A stretch of 37,110 nt of DNA, taken from a virus. Taxonomy: Duplodnaviria; Caudoviricetes. Every line of letters starts with the position of its first letter. Positions within the stretch are counted from its first letter, which is position 1. The notes under the pieces were generated by a model that saw only the letters and a list, made by a program, of their open reading frames with translations, was not told where the DNA came from and searched no databases. Position numbers and translations under genes: made by a program. Of this stretch, positions 1 to 13,587 are shown in pieces. The stretch is from the IMG/VR virus record IMGVR_UViG_3300020045_006994, positions 1 through 37,110 of that record. One strand, 5' to 3'.

Positions 1-121
1 GGAACAGCTTATACAATGGTTTTGGATTCTGTTTTAGTGAATCAAGGCAGCTGTTATAACACAGGTACAGGAATATTTACCGCTCCAGCTGAAGGAAACT
101 ATCAGATCAATTTTATATGTA
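1..121. repeat. Terminal direct repeat (assembly overlap of a circular or circularly permuted genome)
   Basis: 1-121 is identical to 36990-37110, and the reading frame continues across the join. Confidence 0.97.
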
Positions 122-393
122 CAGTTTCAGATATTGGGGCAGCACACAATAATTTTGTAGCTCAAGTAGATGTAAACTCAAGCGCAAATACATATCGGTT
201 ATTTCAGGTTAACCCATTTCCTATTTCAGTTTCTGGAATGGTTTCTCTCGGTTGTTCTTTGATATTGAATCTTTCAGCTTCCAGCACGGTTTCTATTGTT
301 ATTTATGCCTCTGGAAGCACAAAGACCGTTGATGTTTTTGGAGACGGTAGCTCAAATAGATTCAATTCATTTAGTGCTCAAGAGATAAGCTAA
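1..393 (+). CDS. Tail spike, 3' part: C1q/TNF-like globular domain
   Basis: FSAY...VLDSVLVNQGSCYNTGTGIFTAPAEGNYQINF matches the gC1q consensus (F.kvl.N.g..Ydp.tG.FtcpvpG.Y.F). Confidence 0.85.
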   Translation, partial: GTAYTMVLDSVLVNQGSCYNTGTGIFTAPAEGNYQINFICTVSDIGAAHNNFVAQVDVNSSANTYRLFQVNPFPISVSGMVSLGCSLILNLSASSTVSIVIYASGSTKTVDVFGDGSSNRFNSFSAQEIS

Positions 394-624
394 TTATTTA
401 GGGTGATTCTGTTCTAGTATACGTTTACAATCCTTAAACCCTTTTTGAATACCCCTAAAAAAGACAACTTCTTCGAAGTTCATGCAATGAACGTCTGAGG
501 CTTCCATATCGTATTTAAGAACGACTTCAAGCTGATTTATATTATCGTTGATTTCATCAATACACAATTGACAAGATAGTGCGTAGGCTGGTAGAAGTAG
601 GAAAGTGATAAGTAAACGTTTCAT
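394..624 (-). CDS. Small secreted/periplasmic hypothetical protein
   Basis: Start MKRLLITFLLLPAYALSC resembles a signal peptide, followed by CxxC. The longer 753 start overlaps a plus-strand gene. Confidence 0.6.
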   Translation of the reverse strand: MKRLLITFLLLPAYALSCQLCIDEINDNINQLEVVLKYDMEASDVHCMNFEEVVFFRGIQKGFKDCKRILEQNHPK

Positions 625-632
625 GAGGTTAT

Positions 633-770
633 ATGCCGTTGGTTGCAGGTTCATCAAAGAAAAGTATAACGAAAAATATAGCAACAGAGATTCGATCCGG
701 AAAAAAGCCAGATCAGGCTGCAGCCATCGCTTATAGCGTAGCAGGAAAGTCAAAAAAGAAAAAGAAATAG
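633..770 (+). CDS. Small Lys-rich phage protein (MPL.kG.S...I..NI..E...GK...QA.AIA family)
   Basis: SD GAGGT at 625-629; [45 protein letters not shown]; below the ORF-track cutoff. Confidence 0.8.
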
Positions 771-839
771 CTCTATTATCGAAACGTTAAATAAGCGACA
801 ATAACGACGCTTGCTATTTTCACGTTCTTAAATAGCGTC

Positions 840-905
840 ATGTAAAGCGCGCTTTACATTTTGATCAAACTTGTGTCAACTTCATTGTGACACAATGTTG
901 TGTCA
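840..905. repeat. Palindrome cluster at the late/early convergence point
   Basis: Perfect 20-bp ATGTAAAGCGCGCTTTACAT (840-859), TTTGATCAAA, and three TTGTGTCA/TGACACAA copies. Confidence 0.8.
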
Positions 906-1064
906 TTACTCATCGGCATTCATTTCCTCAAACATCAATTTTGCAAAACAAAAAGCCGACTTTGTTTCATCGTCCCATTTAATAATGTCGTAAATATTGT
1001 CGGCTTCTTCTTTTGTAAGGGATGGAAGTATTTCTTTTAGGAATTTATCGATCTTTGCTTTCAT
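906..1064 (-). CDS. Hypothetical protein (52 aa)
   Basis: SD AGGAG; MKAKIDKFLKEILPSLTKEEADNIYDIIKWD... Confidence 0.65.
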   Translation of the reverse strand: MKAKIDKFLKEILPSLTKEEADNIYDIIKWDDETKSAFCFAKLMFEEMNADE

Positions 1065-1097
1065 ACCAATCTCCTACCAATATCTACCAATTTGGTA

Positions 1098-1256
1098 TCA
1101 ACCATCATAACGATCTAAATCCATAGTCTTATCCAATTCGTCGATCGCTTCATTTTGTTCAGGGCAATTAGGACAAGTTACAAAAAATCCATGTAAAGCT
1201 ATCATTTCACATTCACAAATATCACAAGTCATTACTAATTTTTCATGCGAACTCAT
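1098..1256 (-). CDS. Small zinc-ribbon protein (52 aa)
   Basis: SD AAGGAG; CDIC...CPNC pairs. Confidence 0.7.
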   Translation of the reverse strand: MSSHEKLVMTCDICECEMIALHGFFVTCPNCPEQNEAIDELDKTMDLDRYDG

Positions 1257-1357
1257 ATTTACTCCTTTAAATATGTTACGATATCAGAGCTACATTATTG
1301 GTTATTAATGCTCCTAAAATAGCTCAAAAGATAATGGATCGGATTATGTAGATCATT

Positions 1358-1567
1358 TCAGTTATCCTGTTTTTCTGGACAAGCTGGAAGCAGCATCCAA
1401 TGAGTTACACCTTCTAGTTTTCCCGTACCATCATGAAAATAATATACATCTTTATCCCACCCATGTTGGTTTACATACTTAACCCAATCTCCATTGGATG
1501 CTAATAATTCTTTTCCAAACGGTACGTTGATTTCATAATCTTTTGCTTTAACTTTAATCCATTGCAT
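1358..1567 (-). CDS. DUF551-like protein
   Basis: N-terminal QWIKV and C-terminal VTHWMLLP signatures. Confidence 0.8.
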   Translation of the reverse strand: MQWIKVKAKDYEINVPFGKELLASNGDWVKYVNQHGWDKDVYYFHDGTGKLEGVTHWMLLPACPEKQDN

Positions 1568-1569
1568 AA

Positions 1570-1755
1570 TTAATCCTTTGGACTTGGTGGTAAGGGCATC
1601 CAGTGGGTTACGTTTTGAATCTCATATCCGTTATCATCTATCCAACAAATAGGGGTGTAACCACAATGCCTACCAATTTTTATACCGAAAGTGAAGTAAC
1701 ACAAAACTTCTTGCATAGGAGCAGGAATATGGCTAGAGCATTTAATCCATTGCAT
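1570..1755 (-). CDS. DUF551 family protein
   Basis: QWIKCS..P...VL and VTHWMPLPPSP. Confidence 0.88.
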   Translation of the reverse strand: MQWIKCSSHIPAPMQEVLCYFTFGIKIGRHCGYTPICWIDDNGYEIQNVTHWMPLPPSPKD

Positions 1756-1757
1756 TG

Positions 1758-1892
1758 TTATTCCTTTTCAAGTCGCTTTAACAATTTTGCATTTTCTTCT
1801 CGTAAAGCATTTATCCGGCCTCTTCTAAAGAAAATTCTGACGTTCATTATGTAAATATAAATAGTAAAATAAATAATTCTTAATAGATCCAT
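1758..1892 (-). CDS. Small membrane-anchored peptide (44 aa)
   Basis: Fills the gap between two co-directional genes; MDLLRIIYFTIYIYIMNVRIFFRRGRINALREENAKLLKRLEKE. Confidence 0.55.
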   Translation of the reverse strand: MDLLRIIYFTIYIYIMNVRIFFRRGRINALREENAKLLKRLEKE

Positions 1893-1896
1893 TGAT

Positions 1897-2103
1897 TTAT
1901 TCTTCCTCTTTTTTTGGAGGATTCGGAAGCAGCATCCAATGACTTACGGAATTGGTTGAAGGATTGGGAGGGTTATAAAATACAGGTTTCCCTTCTTCAT
2001 CATCGAACCAATATTCCATTATCTGAGTGTGTTGATTCGAACAATAACAAAGTACTGGACAGTCTACTTCAGGAAGTCTTTCTGAGCACCTAATCCAATT
2101 CAT
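1897..2103 (-). CDS. DUF551 family protein
   Basis: MNWIRCSERLPE...VLCY...VSHWMLLPNPP; SD AAAGGA upstream of ATG 2103. Confidence 0.88.
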   Translation of the reverse strand: MNWIRCSERLPEVDCPVLCYCSNQHTQIMEYWFDDEEGKPVFYNPPNPSTNSVSHWMLLPNPPKKEEE

Positions 2104-2146
2104 TGTCATTCCTTTGGTGGTACAGGCAACGGCATCCAAAGATCTT

Positions 2147-2383
2147 TCATATCAAAACCTCATATTCCTGCTTGTTCTTAAGCTCATTGGAAACGTTTCC
2201 TTTGCATATGCAGGATACAAGCAAGTCGATAGTGTGTTTAAGATCTGCAATGTCCTTAGAATTCTTTCCTAACCTGGCGTAATAACTCTTTCTCATGCGT
2301 TCAAGCTTCTCATCTTGAATAGCTATACGCCTATGCAATATCTGTATGTCGTCATCTTTGAATAAGAGCAGTTGTTCAGTCAT
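2147..2383 (-). CDS. Hypothetical coiled-coil protein
   Basis: 78-aa ORF with ATGA overlap to the upstream gene. Confidence 0.7.
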   Translation of the reverse strand: MTEQLLLFKDDDIQILHRRIAIQDEKLERMRKSYYARLGKNSKDIADLKHTIDLLVSCICKGNVSNELKNKQEYEVLI

Positions 2384-2700
2384 GGTTTTTCACTTTCTTC
2401 TTTATGATCTCTTTCGAGTTTATTTTTTCTTGCTTTGGTGATGTTAAAAATAGCTTCCATTTGTTCTTCTGTAAAGCCAGCGACATAGAGAACGTAAGCT
2501 AAAGCTTCACTACAGAAGTAAGAATACATCATTAACAGTTGGTCTTTTTGTTCCAATGAGCATGAGTTATATTTCTCGCTAAATCTCATAGTGAAATCTC
2601 TGACTAATCGTATTGATTCTTCTTGGTTTTTTTCTAAATCAGTCATATGCAATAACATTTCCTTTACATAAAGTCCAAGCGTGCTAAAATGAAAGCACAA
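2380..2700 (-). CDS. Hypothetical protein (start uncertain: TTG 2700, or ATG 2658/2646)
   Basis: Open frame in the operon direction. Confidence 0.6.
   Translation of the reverse strand: MCFHFSTLGLYVKEMLLHMTDLEKNQEESIRLVRDFTMRFSEKYNSCSLEQKDQLLMMYSYFCSEALAYVLYVAGFTEEQMEAIFNITKARKNKLERDHKEESEKP
2663..2690 (+). promoter_or_regulatory. Sigma70-type promoter for the plus-strand sRNA
   Basis: TTTACA-16-TAAAAT with extended -10 (TGc TAAAAT). Confidence 0.5.
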
Positions 2701-2771
2701 AGGACTCCTTTCTTTGTGTCGTTTCGTTCAAGTGTCGTCAGGTTGTACTTAAAATGTACAGCCTGTTTTTT
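2697..2771 (+). ncRNA. Putative ~75-nt antisense sRNA carrying an anti-SD loop
   Basis: Promoter upstream; hairpin CACAAAG/CTTTGTG with GACTCCTTT loop; ends in an intrinsic terminator; no ORF. Confidence 0.55.
2739..2771 (+). terminator. Intrinsic terminator (plus strand, inside a minus-strand region)
   Basis: CAGGTTGTAC-7 nt-GTACAGCCTG followed by T6. Confidence 0.75.
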
Positions 2772-2780
2772 ATTTCGTTT

Positions 2781-2809
2781 ATTATCAATGATTTAGTCTT
2801 TTAGATCAA
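2781..2809 (-). promoter_or_regulatory. Internal leftward promoter
   Basis: Minus strand TTGATC-17-GATAAT. Confidence 0.45.
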
Positions 2810-3666
2810 TCACTACTTTTTCTTATCGTCCACATTTCAGAAGCAGGTTTACGGTGCTTTTCTAAATCATAGTCTTTTAATATCTCTATGCTTTTGTAAT
2901 CTACGTTGCCTTTACGTATAGTTCTAGTGATCTTGTAACCGCTTCCTTTTGATGATTTACCATCACATAGGGTAACTACTCTATCGCGCCACATTTCCTT
3001 TTCTTGCTCGAGCAAAACAAATTGTTCCACGGTCTTTTCGTATTGAATCAAAGCATAAGCAAGATCAGCGCTTTCATTGTTAACGTAGTCTTTATCTGTC
3101 AATTCAGGCGGAGTCATACTAACAATATTGTCGAAATAGAAGTCACCACCTATCTTAATGATATCGTTAATCATATCCTGATTGCGTGACACTTCGATCG
3201 TTTCGTATTGTCCGTCATACCAAGCCATGTAAGTCATTGATGAAATACAAAGAACCGCCATCGTATGTTGCATTTGAGCTATATAATACGGCTCTATAAC
3301 TCCTAATTGCGCTTGCTTGTATGTCTTTTCGCTGCATTTGATTTCGCAGGCATATCTTCCGCACTTAGAAACTCCATCACATGATGCCATCATCCAATCA
3401 AGCTTAGGATGAATAAATACACCTGGTTCAAAATTGATCTTTGAAACCTTGTTAAGTTCAGTTCTAGCCATTGGTTCGTTTAACGTGCCGTATTCCATGC
3501 GAAAGTTAGACTTTTGCGGTTCGATAAGCTCCATTTTTTCGCTCCACAACTGAAACTTCGTCTTAAATGGATTAAGACCTAGCAGTACGCCACTATCAGT
3601 GCTAGTTATTTTCTGTCGACGTAAGGCCAGCCATTCGGCCGACCCTTGTGTAATATTAAGACTCAA
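2806..3666 (-). CDS. YqaJ/lambda-exonuclease family recombination nuclease
   Basis: QGSAEWLALRR..ITSTD, G...EP.AR, MMASCDG, EIKC, YYIAQMQH motifs; TTG start with SD GGAGG. Confidence 0.93.
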   Translation of the reverse strand: MSLNITQGSAEWLALRRQKITSTDSGVLLGLNPFKTKFQLWSEKMELIEPQKSNFRMEYGTLNEPMARTELNKVSKINFEPGVFIHPKLDWMMASCDGVSKCGRYACEIKCSEKTYKQAQLGVIEPYYIAQMQHTMAVLCISSMTYMAWYDGQYETIEVSRNQDMINDIIKIGGDFYFDNIVSMTPPELTDKDYVNNESADLAYALIQYEKTVEQFVLLEQEKEMWRDRVVTLCDGKSSKGSGYKITRTIRKGNVDYKSIEILKDYDLEKHRKPASEMWTIRKSSD

Positions 3667-3910
3667 CTTTAACCTCCGGTAATTTAGGAAAAGGCATCCA
3701 ATGCGTTATGTTTTTACAAAAATAATCCTGAACTTCATCTATAGATAATCTAAGATCTTTATTTATCTGGTTGTGTAAATAGATTTTATCCAAATACCAT
3801 TTTCTTCCGGTGTATATTGCAACACCCAAAAAATCAGAAGAACTTATAAAAACCTCAGATTGAATCTCGTCAGGCAATCTATCTTTAACAGACACCCATT
3901 CATTCATCAT
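3656..3910 (-). CDS. DUF551 family protein inserted between the recombination genes
   Basis: MNEWVSVKDRLP...ITHWMPFPKLP; SD GGAGG. Confidence 0.88.
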   Translation of the reverse strand: MMNEWVSVKDRLPDEIQSEVFISSSDFLGVAIYTGRKWYLDKIYLHNQINKDLRLSIDEVQDYFCKNITHWMPFPKLPEVKVES

Positions 3911-4694
3911 TTTTAACCTCCGGTTTGCCGGTTTCTTTTTGGTCATTAGCTAATTTAACACGTGCGAATATCTTGTCATACCATGTTGAGGGTAGATCTT
4001 GTAACCTAGAGACATTAAGACTCTTTTTAAGAAATTCTTCAACCTTATCACGTAAGTCTAGGTTTTCACCAATCATGTCGTTTAGAGTTTCAAACTGTTC
4101 TTCCGTAATTGATTTGATTTCCAATTGTTTTGGCGCATCTTGTATCTCAACTTCTGCAAATGCTGGACGTGATCTAGCAATTTCCATAAGCTCGTCTTTA
4201 TCATATCCAGCACCTTTAATTACATCAGGAAATAGCTGACGCGCTAGTGTGGACATGGCTCGGTTGTAAAGCATGATTTCAGGATACTTGTCGAACATGT
4301 TTTTAGCTAAACCAGCTCTCTTGGCATCTTCCCAACTAAAAGAAACTGTCCAAGTATCTCCATTGTCTTTACGTTTACCATGAAGAATGCACTTGGTTGC
4401 ATCGGACTTAGCATCTTTAACAATGCTGTGTCCAGCTTGTCTTATTAACGCCGCCATGCTTTCAGTACTCATGCCCACCTTGCCCTGCACATAGTACAAA
4501 CCACCGTTAAGAGCATCTAGAGGGTCCATTTTCAAGCTTTTCGCCTTCTGTGTAATAGCAAATATCCCAGCTTCTCCCATCGCTTGATAATGTTTAGATT
4601 GCATTAGCTTTCTTGCCATCGTGTACATTTTATCGATGTCATTCAAAATCATGTCATATGATACTTCATCTCTTATCACTACTTCATTGCTCAT
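3900..4694 (-). CDS. RecT/Redbeta-like single-strand annealing protein
   Basis: LDALNGGLYYVQGK, FSWEDAKRAGL, KYPEIMLYNRA...ARQLFPDVIKG pattern; adjacent to the YqaJ nuclease. Confidence 0.8.
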   Translation of the reverse strand: MSNEVVIRDEVSYDMILNDIDKMYTMARKLMQSKHYQAMGEAGIFAITQKAKSLKMDPLDALNGGLYYVQGKVGMSTESMAALIRQAGHSIVKDAKSDATKCILHGKRKDNGDTWTVSFSWEDAKRAGLAKNMFDKYPEIMLYNRAMSTLARQLFPDVIKGAGYDKDELMEIARSRPAFAEVEIQDAPKQLEIKSITEEQFETLNDMIGENLDLRDKVEEFLKKSLNVSRLQDLPSTWYDKIFARVKLANDQKETGKPEVKNDE

Positions 4695-4695
4695 T

Positions 4696-5052
4696 TTATA
4701 AATCCTTGTTTGTGTTTTGTATACATGTGTTGAGAAGTTCTGGTAATAAACCTTCAGAAGCCAATCTTAAACACGCTTTACATTCAATTAATGGTTTTTC
4801 ATCATCATCTAGATATTTACACATTATTCTAGAACCATTCCAAAATATGCATAATTCAATTGCTTCAAAAAACACAGAACTTTCAACAAAACCATGTCTA
4901 AGAAACAATTTTTCCAGATTTTTTATATCTCTAGAGATGCCATCTAATTTTTCATTTCTTAAGTTTAATTCTGAAGTTTTACTGCTTAAAACCTGTTGTA
5001 TATCTTTAGAAAAAGTCAAAACAGCGTATTTGTCCTCTTTCCTTTTGCTCAT
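4696..5052 (-). CDS. Hypothetical protein (repeat-flanked cassette)
   Basis: 118-aa ORF, SD AAGGA. Confidence 0.75.
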   Translation of the reverse strand: MSKRKEDKYAVLTFSKDIQQVLSSKTSELNLRNEKLDGISRDIKNLEKLFLRHGFVESSVFFEAIELCIFWNGSRIMCKYLDDDEKPLIECKACLRLASEGLLPELLNTCIQNTNKDL

Positions 5053-5384
5053 TTTAAAAGTCCTTGATTAATTTGATTGTTATAAGTCTGCCAGTCCATT
5101 AAAATGCGAGGTCTGATATGAACAGGCCTTGCGACATTTGGAGCTCCTACTCGGGGCTTTAATCTCATTTCTAGAAGGTGCGCCATTGAGTCCATGTGTT
5201 CTTCTAATAGAGCAGTGTCTAAATGGTCTTCACTATAAAGCATATCTTGTATGTTTTCTAAGAAATCGCGTAAATCGTCCATTACTTGCTCTTTCTCTTT
5301 GCAACTTTCGCATTGGAAGTCTGGTGCTTCATCGTTATAAGGGCTATCCATTGATTCCCATCGCATGTATCTACTTTGTACCAT
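5049..5384 (-). CDS. Hypothetical protein, first gene of the left operon
   Basis: SD AAGGA; CxxC followed by a helical region. Confidence 0.75.
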   Translation of the reverse strand: MVQSRYMRWESMDSPYNDEAPDFQCESCKEKEQVMDDLRDFLENIQDMLYSEDHLDTALLEEHMDSMAHLLEMRLKPRVGAPNVARPVHIRPRILMDWQTYNNQINQGLLK

Positions 5385-5491
5385 GATATTTTTCCTTTCT
5401 TTAAGTTTCCTATTTCCTATTTAAGCTTTCCAGTCTTTAGCTACAGTCCTCGAAGGTGTCTGCGTTAATCGACGTACTTGCTATATGTCCA

Positions 5492-5520
5492 AATTTAACA
5501 AATCCGTCAATTTAAAGCAA
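5492..5520 (-). promoter_or_regulatory. Leftward early promoter (PL-like)
   Basis: Minus strand TTGCTT-17-TAAATT with TGn extension; a TTGACG hexamer is also present. Confidence 0.55.
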
Positions 5521-5532
5521 CACAAATTTGTG
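5521..5532. promoter_or_regulatory. Candidate operator palindrome
   Basis: CACAAATTTGTG, a perfect palindrome between the divergent promoters. Confidence 0.4.
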
Positions 5533-5546
5533 AAATAAGATCGATA

Positions 5547-5575
5547 TTGTAAAATAATGACGATTTTGGTATACT
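5547..5575 (+). promoter_or_regulatory. Rightward early promoter (PR-like)
   Basis: TTGTAA-17-TATACT with TGn extension. Confidence 0.65.
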
Positions 5576-5604
5576 GGTTTTTTATGCATGATAAGGAGGA
5601 TTTT

Positions 5605-5787
5605 ATGCAACTAAAGCAATGGTTGTTTGAGAACAGAAAAACAATAAGTGAATTTGCTATCCTGACAGGATTCAGTAGAACTTCAGTTACTTCTATCTTA
5701 AGCAAGAAGATCAAACCGAGTGAAAGATTCTTATACGAGATTGATAAAGCTACAAATGGTCAGGTTAAAAAGGAAGATTTGATATGA
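5605..5787 (+). CDS. Cro-like XRE helix-turn-helix regulator
   Basis: SD AGGAGG; MQLKQWL...TISEFAILTGFSRTSVTSILSKKIKPS...ATNGQV. Confidence 0.85.
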   Translation: MQLKQWLFENRKTISEFAILTGFSRTSVTSILSKKIKPSERFLYEIDKATNGQVKKEDLI

Positions 5788-6017
5788 TTAGATGGAATCA
5801 TATAAGGGATAAACAACCTGAAAGAGGGAGATCGATCGTTAAGATTACTCAACATGGAAAGGAATTTTATACGATAAACATCAAGAAATACGACAAATCA
5901 GGACGTTTTGACGCATATATCCAACATTGCCAAGAGTTAAATATTCCTAGTTCTTTCTTTTGGTGGGTTTACGCAGAAGATTTCCCTTTTCCGGATAAGG
6001 TGGTTAACGATGAATGA
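5784..6017 (+). CDS. DUF551-like hypothetical protein
   Basis: WNHIRDKQPE N-terminus and WWVY...FPFP C-terminus. Confidence 0.65.
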   Translation: MIRWNHIRDKQPERGRSIVKITQHGKEFYTINIKKYDKSGRFDAYIQHCQELNIPSSFFWWVYAEDFPFPDKVVNDE

Positions 6018-6345
6018 ATGGATTGATTGTGAAGAAGAGAAAAGACCTGAATCCGTATTCGATGTATGTTTAGTAACAGATGGAAAATTATCATGTCTTG
6101 CTTATTATATAGAAAATCCCATGCAATATTATGAAACACATGAAAATAATGATAAAGTACTAGTTGAATGGGATGATAACGAAGAGTGTTACATTCCTAT
6201 GGGAGAAGATGCTTATGAATCTCATTGGGAGTTTATAACGGATATAGGACCTTTTATCAGAGGAGATCAAGAATGTTTTGGAGCGATTGGAGAAATAACC
6301 CACTGGATGCCATTACCAAAACCTCCGGAGATGAAAGATGAATGA
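6010..6345 (+). CDS. DUF551 family protein
   Basis: MNEWIDCEEEKRPE...CLVTDG...ITHWMPLPKPP. Confidence 0.88.
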   Translation: MNEWIDCEEEKRPESVFDVCLVTDGKLSCLAYYIENPMQYYETHENNDKVLVEWDDNEECYIPMGEDAYESHWEFITDIGPFIRGDQECFGAIGEITHWMPLPKPPEMKDE

Positions 6346-6580
6346 ACATATTCAAATACAAGCGGGTCAAGGAATAACAATTAATAATCCAAAACCAATA
6401 AATAAATTCTCTTTTCGTGTTGAAAATAAATGGTTAATTGAAATATCAGAAGGCAAAGGAATAGTCTTTAACAAAGAAGAATTCCCTAACCTAACGTCTG
6501 ATGATTTCGCAAAAGAATTTTGTGACATATTGGAAAGACAAGTAATTGTTAAATTTGATAGAAGGGTTAACGATGAGTAA
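6338..6580 (+). CDS. Hypothetical protein
   Basis: 80-aa ORF overlapping both neighbours. Confidence 0.7.
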   Translation: MNEHIQIQAGQGITINNPKPINKFSFRVENKWLIEISEGKGIVFNKEEFPNLTSDDFAKEFCDILERQVIVKFDRRVNDE

Positions 6581-6779
6581 ATGGATACTTACAACAGATA
6601 ATGATGTCATTAATTTAGATTATTTTTGGCATGTATTTATAACAGATTGCCCCACAGGGTACTATATACTCGGGGAGAATAAAAATGGTGAAGAAGTATG
6701 TCTATCAAAGGTGTTTGAGAATGAACATGATTGCCGATCATATCTTTTTGAATTGTTTGATAAAGATTTGGGAGTTTGA
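6573..6779 (+). CDS. Hypothetical protein
   Basis: MSKWILT start overlapping the previous stop. Confidence 0.7.
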   Translation: MSKWILTTDNDVINLDYFWHVFITDCPTGYYILGENKNGEEVCLSKVFENEHDCRSYLFELFDKDLGV

Positions 6780-6781
6780 AT

Positions 6782-6943
6782 ATGCCTGACGACATAACAA
6801 TAAAAGTATTCGACAACCAAGAGACCTACATAACGTTCCATTTAGGTTATCGAACTTTCGGTAGGACTTTCACGGTTGAAGAACTTAAGTATTTTAACAA
6901 AATGATTGATGCAGTGTTGGATAACTTTAAGGAGATAGAATGA
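6782..6943 (+). CDS. Hypothetical protein (53 aa)
   Basis: SD GGGAG; MPDDITIKVFDNQETYITFHLG...; below the track cutoff. Confidence 0.6.
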   Translation: MPDDITIKVFDNQETYITFHLGYRTFGRTFTVEELKYFNKMIDAVLDNFKEIE

Positions 6944-6956
6944 AAAGGTATAAGGT

Positions 6957-7781
6957 ATGTTAAATGGGTTGGATCTTTTTTCAGGCATTGGAGGAATTTC
7001 CCTCGCACTCAATGAGTGGGTTAGGCCAGTCGCATATTGCGAAATCGATCCCTATTGTCAAGCGGTCATCTTATCTAAAATGGCTACAGGTGACCTGGTG
7101 CATGCCCCAATTTGGGATGATATTAAAACTTTGCGAATCAGACCCCAAGAAATTGATATTGACATCATTTATGGAGGATTCCCATGCCAGGATATCAGCG
7201 TTGCAGGAAATGGAAAAGGTTTGGCAGGAGAGCGAAGCGGGTTATTTTTCGAGATCATTCGCTTGGTCGCTGAAATCAAGCCCAGATTCATATTCCTGGA
7301 AAACGTTCCAGCAATCACAACCCGTGGGGGATTGGAAGTTGTTAGAACGATTGCCGAAATGGGGTATGATTGTAGATGGTGTGTTATATCCGCTGCGTCC
7401 GTTGGAGCGTTACATCGTCGCGAGAGATGGTTCCTATTGGCCCACTCCACAAGAAAGAGCTCAAACCGATACACCTTCGGAGAGGATGAGACACACACCT
7501 TGCTTAGAAACTCAAGTGTTATTAGCGACACCGACAGCAAGCCAAGCGAACAAACCAATAAGGAAACCGAGTCCAAGCAGGCAGAAAAAAGAACATGGGG
7601 AAGATCTACAAGACAGTATTGGCCGTTCGAATCCCGAGATGATTGGAAAAAAACTGTGTCCGAAATGGGTAAGTGTACTAATGGGATATCCGGAAACGTG
7701 GACAAACTTAGAGCGCTTGGAAATTCCGTCGTGCCTGCTCAAGTTAAAGAAGCATTTCAACTTTTAATGGGGATTAAATGA
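6957..7781 (+). CDS. dcm: C5-cytosine DNA methyltransferase, alpha chain (motifs I-VIII and X)
   Basis: LDLFSGIGG (I), GGFPCQD (IV), LENV (VI), HRRERWF (VIII), LRALGNSVVP (X). Confidence 0.93.
   Translation: MLNGLDLFSGIGGISLALNEWVRPVAYCEIDPYCQAVILSKMATGDLVHAPIWDDIKTLRIRPQEIDIDIIYGGFPCQDISVAGNGKGLAGERSGLFFEIIRLVAEIKPRFIFLENVPAITTRGGLEVVRTIAEMGYDCRWCVISAASVGALHRRERWFLLAHSTRKSSNRYTFGEDETHTLLRNSSVISDTDSKPSEQTNKETESKQAEKRTWGRSTRQYWPFESRDDWKKTVSEMGKCTNGISGNVDKLRALGNSVVPAQVKEAFQLLMGIK
6964..7767 (+). CDS. Nested +1-frame partner (beta chain: target-recognition repeats and motif IX); true start may be internal
   Basis: 267 codons open inside dcm; WPTP and LATPTASQA repeats; LCPKWVSVLMGYPETWT motif-IX-like segment. 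Confidence 0.75.
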   Translation: MGWIFFQALEEFPSHSMSGLGQSHIAKSIPIVKRSSYLKWLQVTWCMPQFGMILKLCESDPKKLILTSFMEDSHARISALQEMEKVWQESEAGYFSRSFAWSLKSSPDSYSWKTFQQSQPVGDWKLLERLPKWGMIVDGVLYPLRPLERYIVARDGSYWPTPQERAQTDTPSERMRHTPCLETQVLLATPTASQANKPIRKPSPSRQKKEHGEDLQDSIGRSNPEMIGKKLCPKWVSVLMGYPETWTNLERLEIPSCLLKLKKHFNF

Positions 7782-8062
7782 ACATCTTTAAAAATGTTTT
7801 AAATAAGTTACAGATAGGAAAAATAAATATTATAGAAAATGATCGGAAAGATAAAAAAATTGCGGAACAGTTAGAGAAAACACTTAATTGGCATGTTGTG
7901 AAGAGCAGATCTGATTCAAACCCATTCGATGGTTGCCCAATGGGTCAAATCTTATGTCGAAATATTGAAGAAGCAAAAGAATATGTTGAAAATTCAACAT
8001 TCAATGATCTTTACATAGAGGATTATTCAAAAATTAACACAAATCTTGATTTGAATATATAA
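7778..8062 (+). CDS. Hypothetical protein (AT-rich)
   Basis: 94-aa ORF starting at the end of dcm. Confidence 0.65.
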   Translation: MNIFKNVLNKLQIGKINIIENDRKDKKIAEQLEKTLNWHVVKSRSDSNPFDGCPMGQILCRNIEEAKEYVENSTFNDLYIEDYSKINTNLDLNI

Positions 8063-8071
8063 GGAATTTAA

Positions 8072-8272
8072 ATGAATAAAGACGATTGGATAAAGATTAA
8101 CCCTATACCTGACGATTATGAAGAGTGTGAAATTCTTTTAAAGTCAGGTAAAATAATAAGTGGATGTAGCTTTGAATTAAATAACAAAATTTTCCATCAT
8201 TTTACAGGTGATTTTTGTGGCGGTTATTCAATTAACTCTGTTGATTCTTGGAGAAGAAAATATCAAGAATGA
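8072..8272 (+). CDS. Divergent DUF551-like protein
   Basis: SD AAGGA; DDWIKINPIP...EILLKSG...VDSWR. Confidence 0.6.
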   Translation: MNKDDWIKINPIPDDYEECEILLKSGKIISGCSFELNNKIFHHFTGDFCGGYSINSVDSWRRKYQE

Positions 8273-8293
8273 AGGAGAATTATTTAGAAAATC

Positions 8294-8322
8294 TTGATTT
8301 GAATCTCTGAGTCAGGTATTCT
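8294..8322 (+). promoter_or_regulatory. Promoter of the replication initiator operon
   Basis: TTGATT-17-TATTCT. Confidence 0.6.
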
Positions 8323-8334
8323 CGAGAAACGTTG

Positions 8335-8420
8335 AACGAATCCCCGGGGTAGGAAATACCCCGGGGACACCATAGGAAATAAGAGCTAGTAAACTTGACC
8401 GGTTTTAGCATCTTAGGAAA
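8335..8420 (-). ncRNA. Putative cis-antisense RNA to the initiator leader
   Basis: Minus-strand promoter TTGTCA-17-(TGa)TACAAT at 8427-8455; GC hairpin 8341-8367 as probable 3' end. Confidence 0.55.
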
Positions 8421-8554
8421 AACTTAATTGTATCATGATCCGCAAATTATGACAACAAGATAACTTAAATCACAATTAAGTTCAAGTCCTAAGAGCAAAA
8501 ATCTTCAAGTACTGATCTATTTTCCTAATTAAACAAATCATTTAATAGGTAAAT
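8341..8554 (+). promoter_or_regulatory. Structured 5' leader of the initiator gene
   Basis: 10-bp hairpin 8341-8367; long imperfect hairpin 8373-8527; alternative SD-sequestering hairpin 8519-8554. Confidence 0.7.
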
Positions 8555-8555
8555 C

Positions 8556-9503
8556 ATGTCAGATCAAACTTTTTCTACTATACACCACACATTCGACATC
8601 TATGTAGCAGCCGTTTATGGTGTAAATGAAGCAATTATTATCAATTATTTCCAATATTGGATTGATTTCAATATGAGGACGGGGAAAAACTTCAAAGAAG
8701 GAAGATTTTGGACATATGACCCTATAAAAACAATTGCCGCTCACTTTCCATACTTCACGGAAAATGATGTTAGAGAAATAATCGAACGATTATGTACAGG
8801 AAAAAGTAGGCGAGGAAAAGGAGAGCCAGAGTTTGAGCCGGTGCTAATGAAGGGTAATTTTAACAAGTTAGCTATGGACAAAACAACATGGTATTCATTT
8901 GTAAATCAAAAAATGTTTACGAAAGGGCATTTGCCCACATCGAAGGGGCATTTGCCCAAAGCTATACCACATACAATAACAACACATGCTTTAGCATGTG
9001 ATAACAATGATAAGGCTTGTTCACCTCTTTCTACAGTTTCTATACAAAAGACATTGTCTTCTAAAAAAAACAATATAGAAAAAAAAGAGGTGGTAAAGAC
9101 TTATAAGCTCAATGCCGAACAGCGAGTAGCGTTTGATTGGTTGAAAACTCAAAACATCGACAGCGACGAACAAACATTGTCCTATTGGGCAAAGACCTAC
9201 GACTTCGATCGCTTGAAGAACGTAGTCGCTTGGGCAAAGCGAGAAGAGAGGCAGAGCATAGGAGCTTATATACAAAATCTACTGAAAAAGAACGCCATCG
9301 TTGAAACTCCTAAGCAAAAAGAAAACAAGCAATTAGCAGTAGACTACAAAAGAGAACATCAATGGCATGATTTAACTATACACGAAAGATTTATGTCATG
9401 TAAGAATGATAGAGGACACGACAGAGAAGCGTTCTTTGACGTTGCGCCGGAAACATTCTTTAAAAAACTTTTGGAAATCCATAACTGGTACCTAGGAAAC
9501 TAA
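8556..9503 (+). CDS. Phage replication initiator (lambda O/replisome-organiser-like, N-terminal winged helix)
   Basis: AAVYGVNEAIIINYFQYWI...N..EGRFWTY...HFPYF...GNFNK...DKTTWY; internal iterons; upstream of RusA. Confidence 0.8.
   Translation: MSDQTFSTIHHTFDIYVAAVYGVNEAIIINYFQYWIDFNMRTGKNFKEGRFWTYDPIKTIAAHFPYFTENDVREIIERLCTGKSRRGKGEPEFEPVLMKGNFNKLAMDKTTWYSFVNQKMFTKGHLPTSKGHLPKAIPHTITTHALACDNNDKACSPLSTVSIQKTLSSKKNNIEKKEVVKTYKLNAEQRVAFDWLKTQNIDSDEQTLSYWAKTYDFDRLKNVVAWAKREERQSIGAYIQNLLKKNAIVETPKQKENKQLAVDYKREHQWHDLTIHERFMSCKNDRGHDREAFFDVAPETFFKKLLEIHNWYLGN
8920..8961. repeat. Two 21-bp iterons (putative origin)
   Basis: CGAAAGGGCATTTGCCCACAT / CGAAGGGGCATTTGCCCAAAG, each with a GGGCA-TT-TGCCC dyad. 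Confidence 0.7.
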
Positions 9504-10202
9504 ATGAAATTCACTATACCAGGCGAACCAATAGCACAAAAAAGAGCGGTTACCAAATTCCGTAACGGTTGCCGATGGGTGATGAACCCTAACGATAGCG
9601 AAAAACAAAACGTGAAGAAACATCTTATGTTTCAAATCCAGCAGTCTTTTGAAGAGAGTGCTAAAAATAAAACAGAAGCGTTTAATTTGACCGAGGCGAA
9701 CAAATTTCATGTAAACGTGGAATTCTACCAACTTGTACCCGATTCGCTTTCTGATACCGAAAAGAACGCGAAATTATGGGGTTTCTGTGATTTACCGCCA
9801 TCGAAAAGAGATCTGGACAACTTTCTAAAGTTTATCTTGGATTGTTGTACCGGCATTCTCTTTTCCGATGATCACTTAATTGTTTCGCTAAATTCGTCAA
9901 AACATTATTCAAATAATCCTAGAACCGAAATTGAAATAATCCCTATATTGGAGAAAAGCATGAGTGACGAAGAAAAAGCTGTGTTATGTCAATTTGATCC
10001 TGATGAATTAAAGGAGCTATTAAATGATATCAAAACTATTACGAATGATTCGGGACTTGATAAAAAAGATGAAGAATCCGTGGAATGGCTCGCCTCCAAA
10101 TCCGGCGACATAGCTAAATTCGCAACAAAATACGCCGATAAGCTTAAAAAGATAGAACGAAAGATAAACAAAATCTCCGGAGAAGGAAAAACATTATGTT
10201 AG
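9504..10202 (+). CDS. rusA: RusA family Holliday junction resolvase with C-terminal extension
   Basis: FTIPGEPIAQKR, KRDLDNFLKFILD, G..F.DD..IV, K.YS..PRTEI. Confidence 0.9.
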   Translation: MKFTIPGEPIAQKRAVTKFRNGCRWVMNPNDSEKQNVKKHLMFQIQQSFEESAKNKTEAFNLTEANKFHVNVEFYQLVPDSLSDTEKNAKLWGFCDLPPSKRDLDNFLKFILDCCTGILFSDDHLIVSLNSSKHYSNNPRTEIEIIPILEKSMSDEEKAVLCQFDPDELKELLNDIKTITNDSGLDKKDEESVEWLASKSGDIAKFATKYADKLKKIERKINKISGEGKTLC

Positions 10203-10585
10203 AAGCAAACACACCCGTTAAACTCGATAACACACCAGCAAACACACCAGTTATTGAGTTAAACACACCAGCAAACACACCAGTAGAGGGCGCAAACACA
10301 CCAGTAGGTTTCAATTTGTCACCGACTGAAGATGTCAAGCCGCTTTACATTGAAGAATGCCCAACATCTTGCAAAGGAGAACTAAGATCTTGCCGAACAA
10401 ACCTAGTAGGCGTTGTACTTATCCTTATCGTTTGCGCTCTAGGTTTAGCATATACTATGTCATCTTGCACAATCTCCGTTAACTGCGTAAGAACACAAGG
10501 AACAGCGCAAGATGTACTAGACGAAGAACAATCACCTGTTAACGATGTAAAGCCAGAACTAACAATACCGGCGGCAGCTTTATGA
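10196..10585 (+). CDS. Membrane/lipoprotein-like protein with N-terminal (A)NTP(V) repeats
   Basis: Six NTP units, then a TM helix LVGVVLILIVCALGLAY followed by SSC. Confidence 0.7.
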   Translation: MLEANTPVKLDNTPANTPVIELNTPANTPVEGANTPVGFNLSPTEDVKPLYIEECPTSCKGELRSCRTNLVGVVLILIVCALGLAYTMSSCTISVNCVRTQGTAQDVLDEEQSPVNDVKPELTIPAAAL

Positions 10586-10746
10586 TAACAACAACGAAAC
10601 CTCCGGAAATGCCAGGAGATTTTAACAAAGTAGAATCCATAATCAATATCCCAAAAGTTAATGGATATGAGAAGCATAATGGATTAGGAAAGATTCTGAC
10701 ATTTCAAAAGCATAAAGAATTAACAATACCGGCAGCGGCATTATAA
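10582..10746 (+). CDS. Hypothetical protein (54 aa) ending ELTIPAAAL
   Basis: ATGA overlap; same C-terminal nonapeptide as the upstream gene. Confidence 0.55.
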   Translation: MITTTKPPEMPGDFNKVESIINIPKVNGYEKHNGLGKILTFQKHKELTIPAAAL

Positions 10747-10762
10747 ATCATAAGGAAACAAA

Positions 10763-10900
10763 ATGGACAAGAAAATTAAGAAGCTAACAGCTGACACTAA
10801 GAAGATCGTTAAAGAAGAAAAGAATCTACTTAAAGCGGATATCAAAAGAGATAAATTCGTAGAAGCCGGGAAAAAAGCCCTAGCAAAAAAGAAAAAATAA
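10763..10900 (+). CDS. Small Lys-rich protein (45 aa)
   Basis: SD AAGGA; MDKKIKKLTADTKKIVKEEKNLLKADIKRDK... Confidence 0.75.
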   Translation: MDKKIKKLTADTKKIVKEEKNLLKADIKRDKFVEAGKKALAKKKK

Positions 10901-10986
10901 CTGTAATTGCCTTTTTTCTTATAGTGTTTCATAGTGTTCAATTGATATTGAACTATGTAAAGTAACGAACACATAAAAAGGAAAAC

Positions 10987-11175
10987 ATGACCTCAATACA
11001 AGAAATATTAAGACACACTAGAAAGATCATTGAGAATCCTGTAAAAGTTTCAGATGATGAAATAAATGAATATGTTAGCAATTATCAAAATAAAATGTTT
11101 TTAATCAATTTTTATATTCGATTAAAATGTTATGTAGATAACAGGAAATATTCCTCAAAAACAGATAGAAAATGA
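10987..11175 (+). CDS. Hypothetical protein
   Basis: SD AAGGA; 62 aa. Confidence 0.65.
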   Translation: MTSIQEILRHTRKIIENPVKVSDDEINEYVSNYQNKMFLINFYIRLKCYVDNRKYSSKTDRK

Positions 11176-11420
11176 CATCAATACCAAATTACATTTATCC
11201 ACAGTGCATTATTTGCCATGAAGAATCTCCAAGAGTTTACGAAACGGACTTCTTAGATGATAAAATAACAGTGTGCTCAACTTCATGCTTCAAAATGTAC
11301 CAATACGCCGAACAACAGAAGAAACGCAAAATCAAACACCTTAAGCATTACGTTAACCATGTTAGAGTAGATGAAGTAAAGCTGGAAATTAAGGGCGATA
11401 AGGCTAAAGAGAATGGATAA
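11172..11420 (+). CDS. TRASH/MYM-like zinc-finger protein
   Basis: CIIC...VCSTSC spacing. Confidence 0.65.
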   Translation: MTSIPNYIYPQCIICHEESPRVYETDFLDDKITVCSTSCFKMYQYAEQQKKRKIKHLKHYVNHVRVDEVKLEIKGDKAKENG

Positions 11421-11530
11421 CGTGACTAAAAACGAGTAGAAATTAAGCATGTTTCAGAAATATACTCACGCATTCAACATATGAAATCTTAGGTTTTGAC
11501 CTAAGATACACCTAAGTTAAAGAGGTCATC

Positions 11531-11659
11531 ATGATAAAAAAACTAATGAATAGGTCACTTTCCTTGCTAGTTTCCTTAGCATACGTTTTATTCATGGCGC
11601 TTTTCCTAGGGTTGTGTGTGGGAGTTTTCATAAAATCAATTATTTGGGTATTCGAATGA
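11531..11659 (+). CDS. Small single-TM membrane peptide (42 aa)
   Basis: SD GAGGT; MIKKLMNRSLSLLVSLAYVLFMALFLGLCVGVFIKSIIWVFE. Confidence 0.65.
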   Translation: MIKKLMNRSLSLLVSLAYVLFMALFLGLCVGVFIKSIIWVFE

Positions 11660-11814
11660 TAAAAACAAAAGAAGAAAAAAAAGAAAGATGTCCTTTAGAT
11701 AAAGGTCATACTCCTAATAAGGAAACTATTGAGTCAATTCAATTAAGCGAAAAAGGGGAAGGCATTAGTCGTTTTAATTCTATGGAAGACCTTTTCAAAG
11801 ATCTGGGTATGTAA
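11656..11814 (+). CDS. Stand-alone RelB/DinJ-like antitoxin C-terminal domain
   Basis: PNKETIESIQLSEKGEGISRFNSMEDLFKDL matches the RelB/DinJ tail PN.eT..ai.e...g.....f.s.edLf.dL. Confidence 0.7.
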   Translation: MIKTKEEKKERCPLDKGHTPNKETIESIQLSEKGEGISRFNSMEDLFKDLGM

Positions 11815-11990
11815 TGACAGGAATAACACTATGCAAAGGCAAAGGATGCCCCGTTAAAGATAAATGCTACCGATACGTAACAAAAGGCAACCATACAAAC
11901 CAAGCGTACTTCACTAGAACTCCATACGAAGATAATGTAGGTTGCAAATTCTTCGTGAAAATTGAAAAGGGTAATGATGATGAAAAGTGA
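11814..11990 (+). CDS. Small Cys-rich phage protein (58 aa)
   Basis: TAATG overlap; ITLCKGKGCPVKDKCYRY...QAYF..TP...C. Confidence 0.75.
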   Translation: MTGITLCKGKGCPVKDKCYRYVTKGNHTNQAYFTRTPYEDNVGCKFFVKIEKGNDDEK

Positions 11991-12384
11991 AATATACGAC
12001 TTCATAGAAATAAATGGTGGAGCAGTTACTTTTGTAGAACTACAAAATAGAATAAAGAACTCGAAAGGAGAATCTACTTTAGAAATAGAAGGTGAACGGT
12101 TTTCTAATGTTCTCTTATGGGCTGGAGTTAGCTCGGAGTTTTTTCAGTGCTTTAATGAATTAATGAACGAAAATAAAATCATATCATATCCAACAACTCC
12201 ATTAGTTTATATGCATGATGGAGGAATGTTAGATTTGCCAATAGCTAAAAAAGCTACTCATTACAAGGAACCGCATTGGCTACCTGTCGTTTTATGGACA
12301 AATAAACAAGCCAAGAAAAGAGGGTTTTTTGAAAAAATGAGCAGAAAAAACAAAAAGGAATGCCATGCCTTGGATAACGATTAA
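11974..12384 (+). CDS. Hypothetical protein (possible winged helix)
   Basis: VTFVEL...NVLLWAGVS.EF...LVY..DG..L.LPIAK...YK.PHWLP. Confidence 0.7.
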   Translation: MMMKSEIYDFIEINGGAVTFVELQNRIKNSKGESTLEIEGERFSNVLLWAGVSSEFFQCFNELMNENKIISYPTTPLVYMHDGGMLDLPIAKKATHYKEPHWLPVVLWTNKQAKKRGFFEKMSRKNKKECHALDND

Positions 12385-12556
12385 GAATTGCTCATATGAC
12401 CTAAAGAACATTAAGAAAATCTATCACGAAGACGAATCGCTTTACATTGATTTTCACATTTCCGAATATGTAGACGATTTCGATTACGGTACTCCTGAAA
12501 AAGCAAAAGAAGCTTTCGAAGACCTAGTTGCTCTAATCAATGGTTTGACGCGTTAG
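12365..12556 (+). CDS. Hypothetical protein
   Basis: SD AAGGA; 63 aa. Confidence 0.7.
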   Translation: MPWITIKNCSYDLKNIKKIYHEDESLYIDFHISEYVDDFDYGTPEKAKEAFEDLVALINGLTR

Positions 12557-12629
12557 TTTTGCGCGTAGAAAAACACTGGTTATTCAGTTTTTTGCTGAAA
12601 TTGGGAATTATAGCCCGTGTTTAAAACAG

Positions 12630-12660
12630 AAAAGGGAAGGATTGATCTGCCTTCCCTTTT
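12630..12660. terminator. Bidirectional terminator between convergent operons
   Basis: AAAAGGGAAGG-9 nt-CCTTCCCTTTT. Confidence 0.75.
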
Positions 12661-12663
12661 GCT

Positions 12664-12891
12664 TCATTCAGCTTTCTTTAATTGTCCTGAATCTTTAATC
12701 ATGCAGCAATCCTTTGAAACAAAGGCACCTTCCAATCTGCATAACCGGCGGTCAACGTCTGTTAGCTTCTCATCTAGTTTATCAATCCTAGTGTCAATTC
12801 TATCGAAACGACTGTTTATATCAGCCCACATAACAAATATTAGACCGCCAATAGCAATAATCATCGTCATTACGATTTGTATATCCGTCAT
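12664..12891 (-). CDS. Single-TM plus coiled-coil protein
   Basis: N-terminal TM helix, then heptads RFDRIDTRIDKLDEKLTDVDRRLCRLEG. Confidence 0.8.
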   Translation of the reverse strand: MTDIQIVMTMIIAIGGLIFVMWADINSRFDRIDTRIDKLDEKLTDVDRRLCRLEGAFVSKDCCMIKDSGQLKKAE

Positions 12892-13034
12892 AATATTTCC
12901 TTTTTAGTTTTTAAATATTCAGTTACCAACCGACATAACAAGTCAGCCATTGTAACACCTTCTTTCACACATTGAAGTTTCACTTCTTTGTGTAAGTTTT
13001 CGTGTATTCTAATTTGTAATTGTACTTTCTTCAT
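12888..13034 (-). CDS. Ribbon-helix-helix (Arc/ParG-like) regulator
   Basis: KVQLQIRIHENLHKEVKLQCVKEGVTMADLLCRLVTEYL. Confidence 0.85.
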   Translation of the reverse strand: MKKVQLQIRIHENLHKEVKLQCVKEGVTMADLLCRLVTEYLKTKKEIL

Positions 13035-13056
13035 GAAATCCCCGGTAGGGCAGCGC

Positions 13057-13278
13057 TTATCGCGCTGCAAGTTCTAAGTCTATTTCTTCATGTACCATTC
13101 TTTCTTCATATCCAGCTTTAAACCATTTGCAAAGATGCAACGCATTCTTCTCATTAAGTAATTTTCCCATGGTTAAATATAATTCAGTTGTTAATGTTGA
13201 GGATACCTTTCTTGCTTCATATCCTTTAATGAAGGCTGATTCTTCGATGCTTTGTATTGCTGGTTTGTATGCTTTCAT
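13057..13278 (-). CDS. Hypothetical protein, first gene of a three-gene minus-strand operon
   Basis: SD AAGGAG; 73 aa. Confidence 0.75.
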   Translation of the reverse strand: MKAYKPAIQSIEESAFIKGYEARKVSSTLTTELYLTMGKLLNEKNALHLCKWFKAGYEERMVHEEIDLELAAR

Positions 13279-13315
13279 TTTGGACTCCTTAAGTCGTTTC
13301 GTTGTTTATGATATC

Positions 13316-13344
13316 AATATATCAAGATACCACATTTAACGCAA
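13316..13344 (-). promoter_or_regulatory. Promoter of the RHH operon with (T)GATAT(C) repeats
   Basis: Minus strand TTGCGT-17-(TGa)TATATT; GGTATC/TGATAT/GATATC repeats overlap the -10. Confidence 0.6.
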
Positions 13345-13434
13345 GCGTTTATTTTCATTTTCTCTAATAAAAATAGAAATCGCGTTTACAAATACGTGTG
13401 AGTTTGGTAACCTTACGAAATAAAAAGGTAATAT

Positions 13435-13569
13435 ATGAAAATCACATGCCCCGAATGTAAATCAGCTGTACACAAAACAGAAATATACTCCGACTGGTGC
13501 TTCTGCACTAACTGCTTCGTTGCTTTCGATATCCCAAAAGAGAAAAAAGAGGTTGCAATTAAAGCCTAG
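13435..13569 (+). CDS. Small zinc-ribbon protein (44 aa)
   Basis: SD AAGGT; CPEC...CTNC. Confidence 0.7.
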   Translation: MKITCPECKSAVHKTEIYSDWCFCTNCFVAFDIPKEKKEVAIKA

Positions 13570-13581: not shown

Positions 13582-13587
13582 ACCTCT

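Follow-up and report, generated by a model that had tools for sequence, protein, structure and literature searches.

A predicted phage small RNA complementary to the ribosome-binding site of a distant operon, with an apparent origin from a copy of its target

The window analyzed here, a stretch of 37,110 nucleotides, consists of a complete 36,989-bp tailed-phage genome plus a 121-nt terminal repeat. It encodes RecE-like and RecT-like proteins, a replication initiator, RusA, terminase, portal, and capsid. The host is probably an environmental chlamydia, since 13 of the 16 genome matches of the third protein of the target operon described below were Chlamydiota assemblies and relatives of RecE are present in Chlamydiota genomes (11 of 400). 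For comparison, we used 32 related records with RecE and capsid proteins 25 to 51% identical to those of the window; the RecE relatives found were 31 to 42% identical. The records G001 to G036 and L048 to L063 represent a broad tailed-phage family, mostly of 36 to 41 kb, whose small genes recur in Chlamydiota assemblies. Judging by translations, some of its members appear to have recombinase genes, which the window does not. Among the papers listed in our literature searches, none dealt with this chlamydia-linked phage group.

Within the recombination operon, the plus strand between positions 2663 and 2772 is likely to be a small-RNA gene. It begins with a predicted promoter of the sigma70/sigma66 type with an extended -10 element (2663 to 2690; TTTACA-16-TAAAAT with TG), which attains a consensus score of 10/12 in addition to the TG and would direct transcription from approximately position 2697. 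The predicted product is a 76-nt noncoding RNA (2697 to 2772, plus strand) composed of a 5' hairpin, a single-stranded linker of about 20 nt, and a terminator. The hairpin (2695 to 2719) has at most 10 bp and carries CUCCU in its loop; its energy is -9.6 kcal/mol on the plus strand versus -6.5 on the minus strand. The intrinsic terminator (2739 to 2771), with 10 bp and a U-run, reaches -14.5 kcal/mol on the plus strand versus -9.6 on the minus strand and is one-directional, the minus strand lacking a U-run after the hairpin. Two sequence blocks lie upstream of it. Block 1, GGACTCCTT (2702 to 2710), is exactly complementary to the Shine-Dalgarno (SD) region of a gene starting at 13278, and block 2, GTCGTTTCGTT (2718 to 2728), is mostly unpaired (unpaired probability of 0.6 to 0.9 from 2720 on) and is the predicted toehold. 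The first-pass annotation had located the promoter, both blocks at both loci, the 7- and 2-nt gaps between them, and the terminator, all with coordinates that proved right. Its description of an anti-SD sequence exposed in a loop holds for CUCCU (2705 to 2709), whereas the rest of block 1 lies in the stem.

Taken singly, neither promoter-like nor terminator-like sites were more frequent than expected by chance in positions 1 to 15000 (45 found versus 52.4 expected, and 12 versus 9.1, respectively). Only 2 of the 45 promoter-like sites, one of them the sRNA promoter, scored 10/12 plus TG. A promoter of equal score within 110 nt of a terminator occurred in none of 1,000 second-order Markov genomes, and a weaker one occurred in 5 of 1,000; the combination is beyond chance. 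Among 32 promoter-terminator units from 33 genomes, this promoter ties for the top score. The fold of the predicted RNA (2697 to 2772) has a z-score of -4.35, with none of 200 shuffles folding as well. G.U pairs in both hairpins favor the plus strand, and the greater stability of both on that strand argues for plus-strand transcription. With a promoter, no ORF, an intrinsic terminator, and an exposed seed, the locus is predicted to specify a trans-encoded base-pairing sRNA.

The putative target lies 10.6 kb away, in a self-contained minus-strand operon, in which a likely promoter is followed by a leader of approximately 30 nt and three genes, with a hairpin at the end. The likely promoter (13344 to 13316; TTGCGT-17-TATATT with TG) was read by eye and is absent from the consensus scan; a second possible -10 element, TATCAT, at 13313 to 13308 extends the region to 13308. 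The first gene (13057 to 13278) is an orphan ORF for a predicted two-helix, hydrophilic protein of 73 aa. It is followed by genes for a 48-aa ribbon-helix-helix (RHH), Arc-like protein (12888 to 13034; PHROG 582 at E 3e-6 and Pfam RHH_10 at E 1e-4, the latter below the cutoff) and for a 75-aa protein with a hydrophobic segment and a coiled coil (12664 to 12891), whose family occurs in Chlamydiota genomes and related phages. The closing hairpin (12630 to 12660) is likely a two-way terminator. The leader folds into only a weak 5-bp hairpin. The SD of the RHH gene is part of a weak hairpin, which immediately follows a stronger one located at the stop codon of 13278, and the RHH stop codon overlaps the start of the third gene, which together make translational coupling plausible.

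Sequence searches with the 13278 protein in Pfam (to E 10), PHROGs, NCBIfam, and PDB were empty or at chance level, and no Foldseek match in PDB or BFVD reached E 0.001. A wide structure search returned generic helices only (best Z, 5.7), as did the single-sequence model, which has a pLDDT of 61. Comparison with ribosome modulation factor yielded an Atlas feature score of 0.77 and a TM of 0.60, both under the Atlas bar. Searches for relatives of the 13278 and RHH proteins returned each protein itself alone. No antirepressor family was matched among 62 ORFs in PHROGs, many of which are orphans. The neighborhood of the operon holds further elements. On the plus strand, 13385 to 13426 is a divergent promoter-like site for gene 13435 with the same -35 TTTACA and extended TG as the sRNA promoter, and 12 nt downstream of it match the tail of the sRNA terminator in reverse. 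This third 12-nt match between the two loci (2767 to 2778 with 13426 to 13415) is A/T-rich and lies mostly past the predicted RNA end, and it was set aside. A second promoter-to-terminator unit adjoins the target locus at 13553 to 13675 (plus strand; TTGCAA-17-TATAAT; about 88 nt) and has no clear trans target (best -15.2 versus next -14.1). Directly 3' of its terminator, 13692 to 13759 (plus strand) is a tRNA-like element that scores 36.6 bits with the Rfam tRNA model, above the gathering score; ARAGORN reported none.

The short 13278 leader contains an exact 9+11-nt complement of the two blocks (13282 to 13303, minus strand), which includes the SD AAGGAG. Block 1 is found at 2702 to 2710 and 13282 to 13290 and block 2 at 2718 to 2728 and 13293 to 13303, neither having a third site in the genome; the gap between them is 7 nt in the sRNA unit versus 2 nt at the target. 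The joint two-block pattern, chosen after the fact, occurred twice in the window versus in none of 100 shuffles. Among 63 annotated leaders, the best exact two-block complement was that of 13278 with 20 nt, followed by one of 15 nt. A bipartite match of 20 nt was reached by 1 of 20,000 dinucleotide shuffles of the 42-nt sRNA body, by 11 of 20,000 when the anti-SD core was held fixed, and by 8 of 20,000 when the whole hairpin was, corresponding to a p of 5e-5 to 6e-4 for the match to the 13278 leader. In natural sequences, loose matches of at least 20 nt were found for 54 of 2,526 leaders in the phage family, many deriving from paralogues or terminal repeats, and natural matches numbered 4 among 5,280 windows, 2 of these being starts of DUF551-like paralogues. 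The window itself carries five paralogous small genes of PHROG 924 (at 1358 to 2139, 3656 to 3946, and 6010 to 6345), which we take to be DUF551-like; their common starts and ends amount to natural leader duplications.

The 13278 leader came first among trans leaders in duplex energy (-30.2 versus -22.9 kcal/mol). When the folding of both RNAs was taken into account, its predicted net binding was -21.3 kcal/mol versus -12.8 for the next of 90 leaders, as the first-pass annotation had anticipated for a scan of the sRNA against all phage leaders. This lead of 8.5 kcal/mol is the widest gap among the 32 units from 33 genomes, and none of the other 31 had a comparably clean trans target. Four alternative message starts still gave net values of -18.7 to -21.3 kcal/mol, and the toehold is predicted to be unpaired on both RNAs, that is, in block 2 and at the 5' end of the 13278 message. 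In duplex energy itself, the match stands out only modestly, given that 8 of 600 shuffles reached -30.2 kcal/mol. Genome wide, the 13278 site leads in duplex energy by only 0.3 kcal/mol with the 5' part of the sRNA and takes second place with the full RNA. Several leaders from other phages are predicted to bind the sRNA comparably (-19.6 to -22.9) via G.U-rich pairing. Binding is also predicted for a leader in the recombination operon of G021 (30862 to 30903, minus strand; net -17.6) and for the recT leader of G009 at 20516 (minus strand; net -21.9). Cross-phage repression of these two leaders is conceivable, but their modeled values are no better than chance would give with so many leaders.

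What is new is that the sequence common to both loci extends past the two blocks, into the start-codon region of 13278. For 165 nt around the unit, there are two exact matches of at least 12 nt elsewhere in the genome, both at the target locus. Positions 2686 to 2697 are a 12-nt same-sense copy of the 13278 start-codon region. A 12-nt match arose in 53 of 50,000 shuffles, and of 918 genome windows, two had matches of at least 11 nt, each of them on the target. In plus-strand layout, 2682 to 2685 equal 13270 to 13273, and the following 8 nt (2686 to 2693) are the reverse complement of 13274 to 13281. This flipped segment is enclosed by perfect 5-bp inverted repeats (2681 to 2685 and 2694 to 2698), the apparent scar of a micro-inversion (2681 to 2698), and supplies five bases of the sRNA -10 box. 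Relative to the target, the unit contains insertions at 2694 to 2701 (8 nt) and 2711 to 2717 (7 nt where the target has 2), and the two pair with each other to form the stem of the 5' hairpin. Allowing for the flip, the colinear homology with 13270 to 13303 amounts to 32 nt.

These features suggest descent of the unit from a duplicated 13278 start region, which a micro-inversion would have turned into an antisense gene. The copy would have landed next to an antisense terminator already present in the recombination operon. Through the 8-nt flip, the minus strand would have lost the start codon and the plus strand would have gained its -10 box, and the 5' hairpin would have arisen from two insertions complementary to each other. 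If so, common ancestry, not chance, lies behind the match, and selection on the match is a separate matter. Shared ancestry alone could account for the exactness of the match if the copy is recent, as leaders do get duplicated in this phage family. The match is not that of a paralogous gene start, as the 13278 and 2380 proteins are unrelated. The first-pass annotation had set an sRNA against a mere duplicated leader; this either/or is too sharp because the sequence indicates both, and both likely hold.

The same homology could be read differently, with the locus as an inert relic, a duplicated and rearranged gene start beside a terminator that stops stray plus-strand transcription. Besides the 32 colinear nucleotides, this reading could draw on a single template-switch event, which might make both the flip and one hairpin arm, and on the commonness of promoter-like sites in AT-rich DNA (45 versus 52 expected). 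Counting against it are a correctly placed promoter that is near the best of the region, an arrangement seen in 0 of 1,000 random genomes, and a fold z-score of -4.35, and we consider it improbable.

A stronger challenge comes from the surroundings of the unit. Translation of the 88-aa gene after recE (2380 to 2646, minus strand) probably begins at position 2646 or 2652; the former, an ATG, is the start in the Atlas record. The first-pass annotation took the sRNA to be cis-antisense also to the leader of a gene starting at 2700. That start is doubtful: the TTG at 2700 lies 4 nt from an SD, and its first codons run through the opposite-strand promoter. A GTG at 2698 opens four codons only. What survives of the claim is that some cis action on the message of the recombination operon probably exists, and it provides the main rival to our reading. 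According to this rival, the RNA exists but owes its maintenance to a cis function, as antisense to the intercistronic stretch after recE, acting by cleavage of the lambda OOP kind or by collision of opposing promoters, and the 13278 match is an unselected leftover of duplication. The RNA is complementary over its whole length to the minus-strand message (net -54), and a weak opposing promoter-like site (2781 to 2809, minus strand), with a chance-level score of 9/12 in the consensus scan, would give a transcript wholly antisense to it. The likely real SD of the 88-aa gene (2660 to 2664) is situated under the sRNA promoter and outside the RNA, so a cis effect would be cleavage or promoter collision rather than RBS blocking; no clear RBS is covered in cis.

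Further evidence on the cis function comes from related phages. In the distant phage G025, a strong terminator follows a core resembling that of the sRNA unit, and the element overlaps the ribosome-binding site of recE in antisense orientation. It was the best of 102 terminator-upstream regions (score of 32 versus 22; 44 of 5,000 shuffles), a likeness noticed after the fact, and is a probable homologue of the sRNA unit (p of about 0.01). Without the terminator condition the similarity is not significant, 120 of 200 shuffles reaching the best score and nhmmer giving no match under E 1. The G025 element has no trans target (best -9.5). It differs at 6 of the 20 block positions, and the 13278 leader has the version of the present phage at all 6; the spacer common to G025 and the sRNA unit is missing from the 13278 leader. 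This pattern fits either the fitting-in of a new target or recent DNA exchange. Antisense promoter or terminator units without clear trans targets are also present in the recombination operons of G021, G010, and G005. Together with G025, these elements support an older cis-antisense element and weigh most heavily against a purely trans role. Should the sRNA and the 13278 message both be made, they could hardly fail to form a duplex of -21 kcal/mol at the 13278 SD, and we regard an exclusively cis-acting RNA as possible but rather unlikely.

Searches for closer homologues covered several sequence sets. Neither nhmmer nor Smith-Waterman alignment of the sRNA locus against 45 related sequences (1.2 Mb) gave anything significant, and no relative examined has the target operon or an identical sRNA unit. 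The two-block pattern was found at 0 loci in viral contigs, and a tighter version was found at 0 in metagenome contigs. A pattern built from the sRNA locus and G025 matched 21 viral loci, with the terminator layout and clear family genes in G025 alone, and 1 of 401 genomes of the chlamydial phylum, where no terminator follows. No relatives of gene 2147 were found. Two other candidates were rejected. An early leader in G021 has 19 of 21 nt in common with the locus, but with a blastn E of 2 and no antisense partner in the G021 genome it is a lead only. An element after recE in G005 has GACTCCT and its position in common with the sRNA unit but no trans target (best -10.2). In that phage (L009:3985-4105, minus strand), an antisense terminator lies directly after recE, preceded by GACTCCT and a long hairpin that hides an SD and ATG on the sense strand.

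The shared blocks might also be DNA operators, for example, for the operon's own RHH protein, instead of RNA seeds. RHH proteins commonly repress their own operons, which we counted in favor of this view. AAYGAAA occurs 28 times in the genome, and only at these two loci do three copies of this heptamer cluster within 100 nt (P of 0.0014 for uniform placement, with a motif chosen after the fact), and one copy overlaps the sRNA -10 box. Shared ancestry accounts for these clusters equally well. Moreover, block 1 is the complement of an SD and sits in an RNA hairpin loop, and the block spacing differs by 5 bp between the loci; since this is half a helical turn, an internal loop in an RNA duplex fits better than a rigid DNA site. 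As a sole explanation, operators appear very improbable. They could coexist with RNA pairing in a two-way switch, in which the RNA would block translation of the operon and the RHH protein would repress the RNA promoter via the inherited AAYGAAA motifs. We consider such a switch improbable. If it exists, one duplication and an 8-nt inversion would have given promoter, seed, and operator together.

The reading that we prefer, with moderate confidence, is that the 76-nt RNA is a trans-acting translational repressor of the operon encoding the 13278, RHH, and membrane proteins. Unpaired block 2 is predicted to meet the unpaired 5' end of the 13278 message first. The 5' hairpin would then open and block 1 would close over the SD, so that translation is blocked. 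The duplex is predicted to be long enough for Hfq not to be needed. The downstream RHH and membrane-protein genes would be silenced through translational coupling. Such an arrangement would act as a threshold: the operon, probably harmful or regulatory, would stay off for as long as its transcription does not outpace the RNA. Of the original proposal, repression in trans over the 13278 SD by 9+11 nt of pairing stands as the best reading; its immunity analogy is unsupported, and the 2700 start on which its cis component depends is doubtful.

Several known antisense RNAs resemble the predicted one in part. The c4 RNA of phages P1 and P7 is processed by RNase P. It is approximately 77 nt long, is listed as trans-acting, and blocks translation at the ant RBS (PMC12197685, PMC8201110). 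As c4 does with a phage regulatory operon, the predicted RNA would pair around the RBS of a phage operon with pairing sequences in loops, here 9+11 nt over the 13278 SD. As far as these sources describe it, c4 sits in the immI region with its target, whereas the predicted sRNA has its own promoter and terminator 10.6 kb away; also, no antirepressor, CI-type repressor, or immunity role was found for it. A scan of positions 1 to 15000 with the Rfam 15 models to E 1, including the c4 covariance model, gave three matches, none at the sRNA unit. The RNA likely works like P1 c4 without being a c4 member. The first-pass analogy to P1 C4 and P4 CI immunity is unsupported, because there is no Rfam match, no PF00589 integrase in the window, and no clear CI-type repressor in a PHROGs scan of it.

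The CI RNA of P4 is a small satellite-phage RNA that pairs with separate complementary sequences in the phage transcript; it arises by processing of the transcript under its control and brings about transcription termination at seqA/seqC (PMC4825925). Small size and separate pairing blocks are common to both RNAs. In contrast to P4 CI as outlined there, the predicted sRNA is a primary transcript expected to occlude an SD on a distant message, and its target is not a flanking sequence but lies 10.6 kb off on the other strand. In the par(pAD1) RNA II/Fst system, two direct repeats are read oppositely, and bipartite pairing sequesters a translation start (PMC7472228). The two-direct-repeat geometry is identical to that of the blocks at 2702/2718 and 13282/13293. 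The par RNAs, in the account given there, are convergent neighbors with one terminator in common that pair from terminator loops, whereas our loci are 10.6 kb apart and have no terminator in common, that of the sRNA being one-directional. The par target is a short membrane toxin. The 13278 protein has 73 aa, is hydrophilic rather than short and hydrophobic like Fst/Ldr toxins, and has no Pfam match to E 10.

P22 sar overlaps ant. It and lambda OOP are 68 to 77 nt long, have their own promoters, and are antisense to a phage regulatory message, OOP being listed as cis-encoded and sar as trans in a review table (PMC12197685). Both are models for the cis rival and for the G025 homologue, and neither is described in the available part of that review with a distant bipartite target. 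The same source contains a table of 38 undescribed phage sRNAs that could bear on novelty. Chlamydia lacks Hfq, and its IhtA sRNA represses translation Hfq-free (PMC4355289). IhtA exemplifies, as the predicted sRNA would, Hfq-independent trans repression of initiation via a hairpin loop, in the likely host phylum; unlike the predicted sRNA, IhtA is host encoded, is 107 nt long, and uses a 7-nt seed on the AUG (PMC4355289). We found no sequence relation between the two. Salmonella SesR2 was born via a rearrangement and a newly formed sigma70 promoter (PMC4350180). According to the excerpted account, point mutations gave rise to the SesR2 promoter and SesR2 would have cis targets, if any, whereas promoter and seeds of the predicted sRNA appear to be copied from the distant target itself. 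Among the literature matches listed for sRNA origin by inverted duplication, there were plant and oomycete papers only.

The mechanism, a phage RNA covering the phage's own ribosome-binding site, is already known from c4. It is not settled how the match between a trans-acting bacterial sRNA and its target arises, since evolution usually erases the traces of the origin. In this genome, the individual steps still seem legible: duplication of the start region of the target, a flip that made the promoter, and insertions that made the hairpin. If the RNA works, it would be a small, Hfq-free, one-target repressor and offer an initial view of gene control by RNA in tailed phages associated with environmental chlamydiae. 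Overall, as judged from sequence, we regard it as a real, well-built candidate with an unusually readable origin.

Three further observations concern the genome and its relatives. The palindrome TGTAAA-N5-TTTACA is present in one to four copies in 14 of the 32 related records (G002, G003, G008, G009, G018, G020, G021, G022, G025, G027, G030, G032, G035, and G036), often near gene starts, and is absent from the window; it is a candidate for an operator common to the related phages. Three tandem 33-nt repeats at 10204 to 10304 (plus strand) are possible origin iterons; they lie where gene 10196 starts, downstream of the genes for the replication initiator and RusA. At 6957 to 7781 and 6964 to 7767 (plus strand), nested ORFs of 274 and 267 aa in different frames of the same strand both match DNA methyltransferase PHROGs (E 6e-64 and 2e-16, respectively). 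They recall known two-frame methyltransferases, such as M.EcoHK31I.
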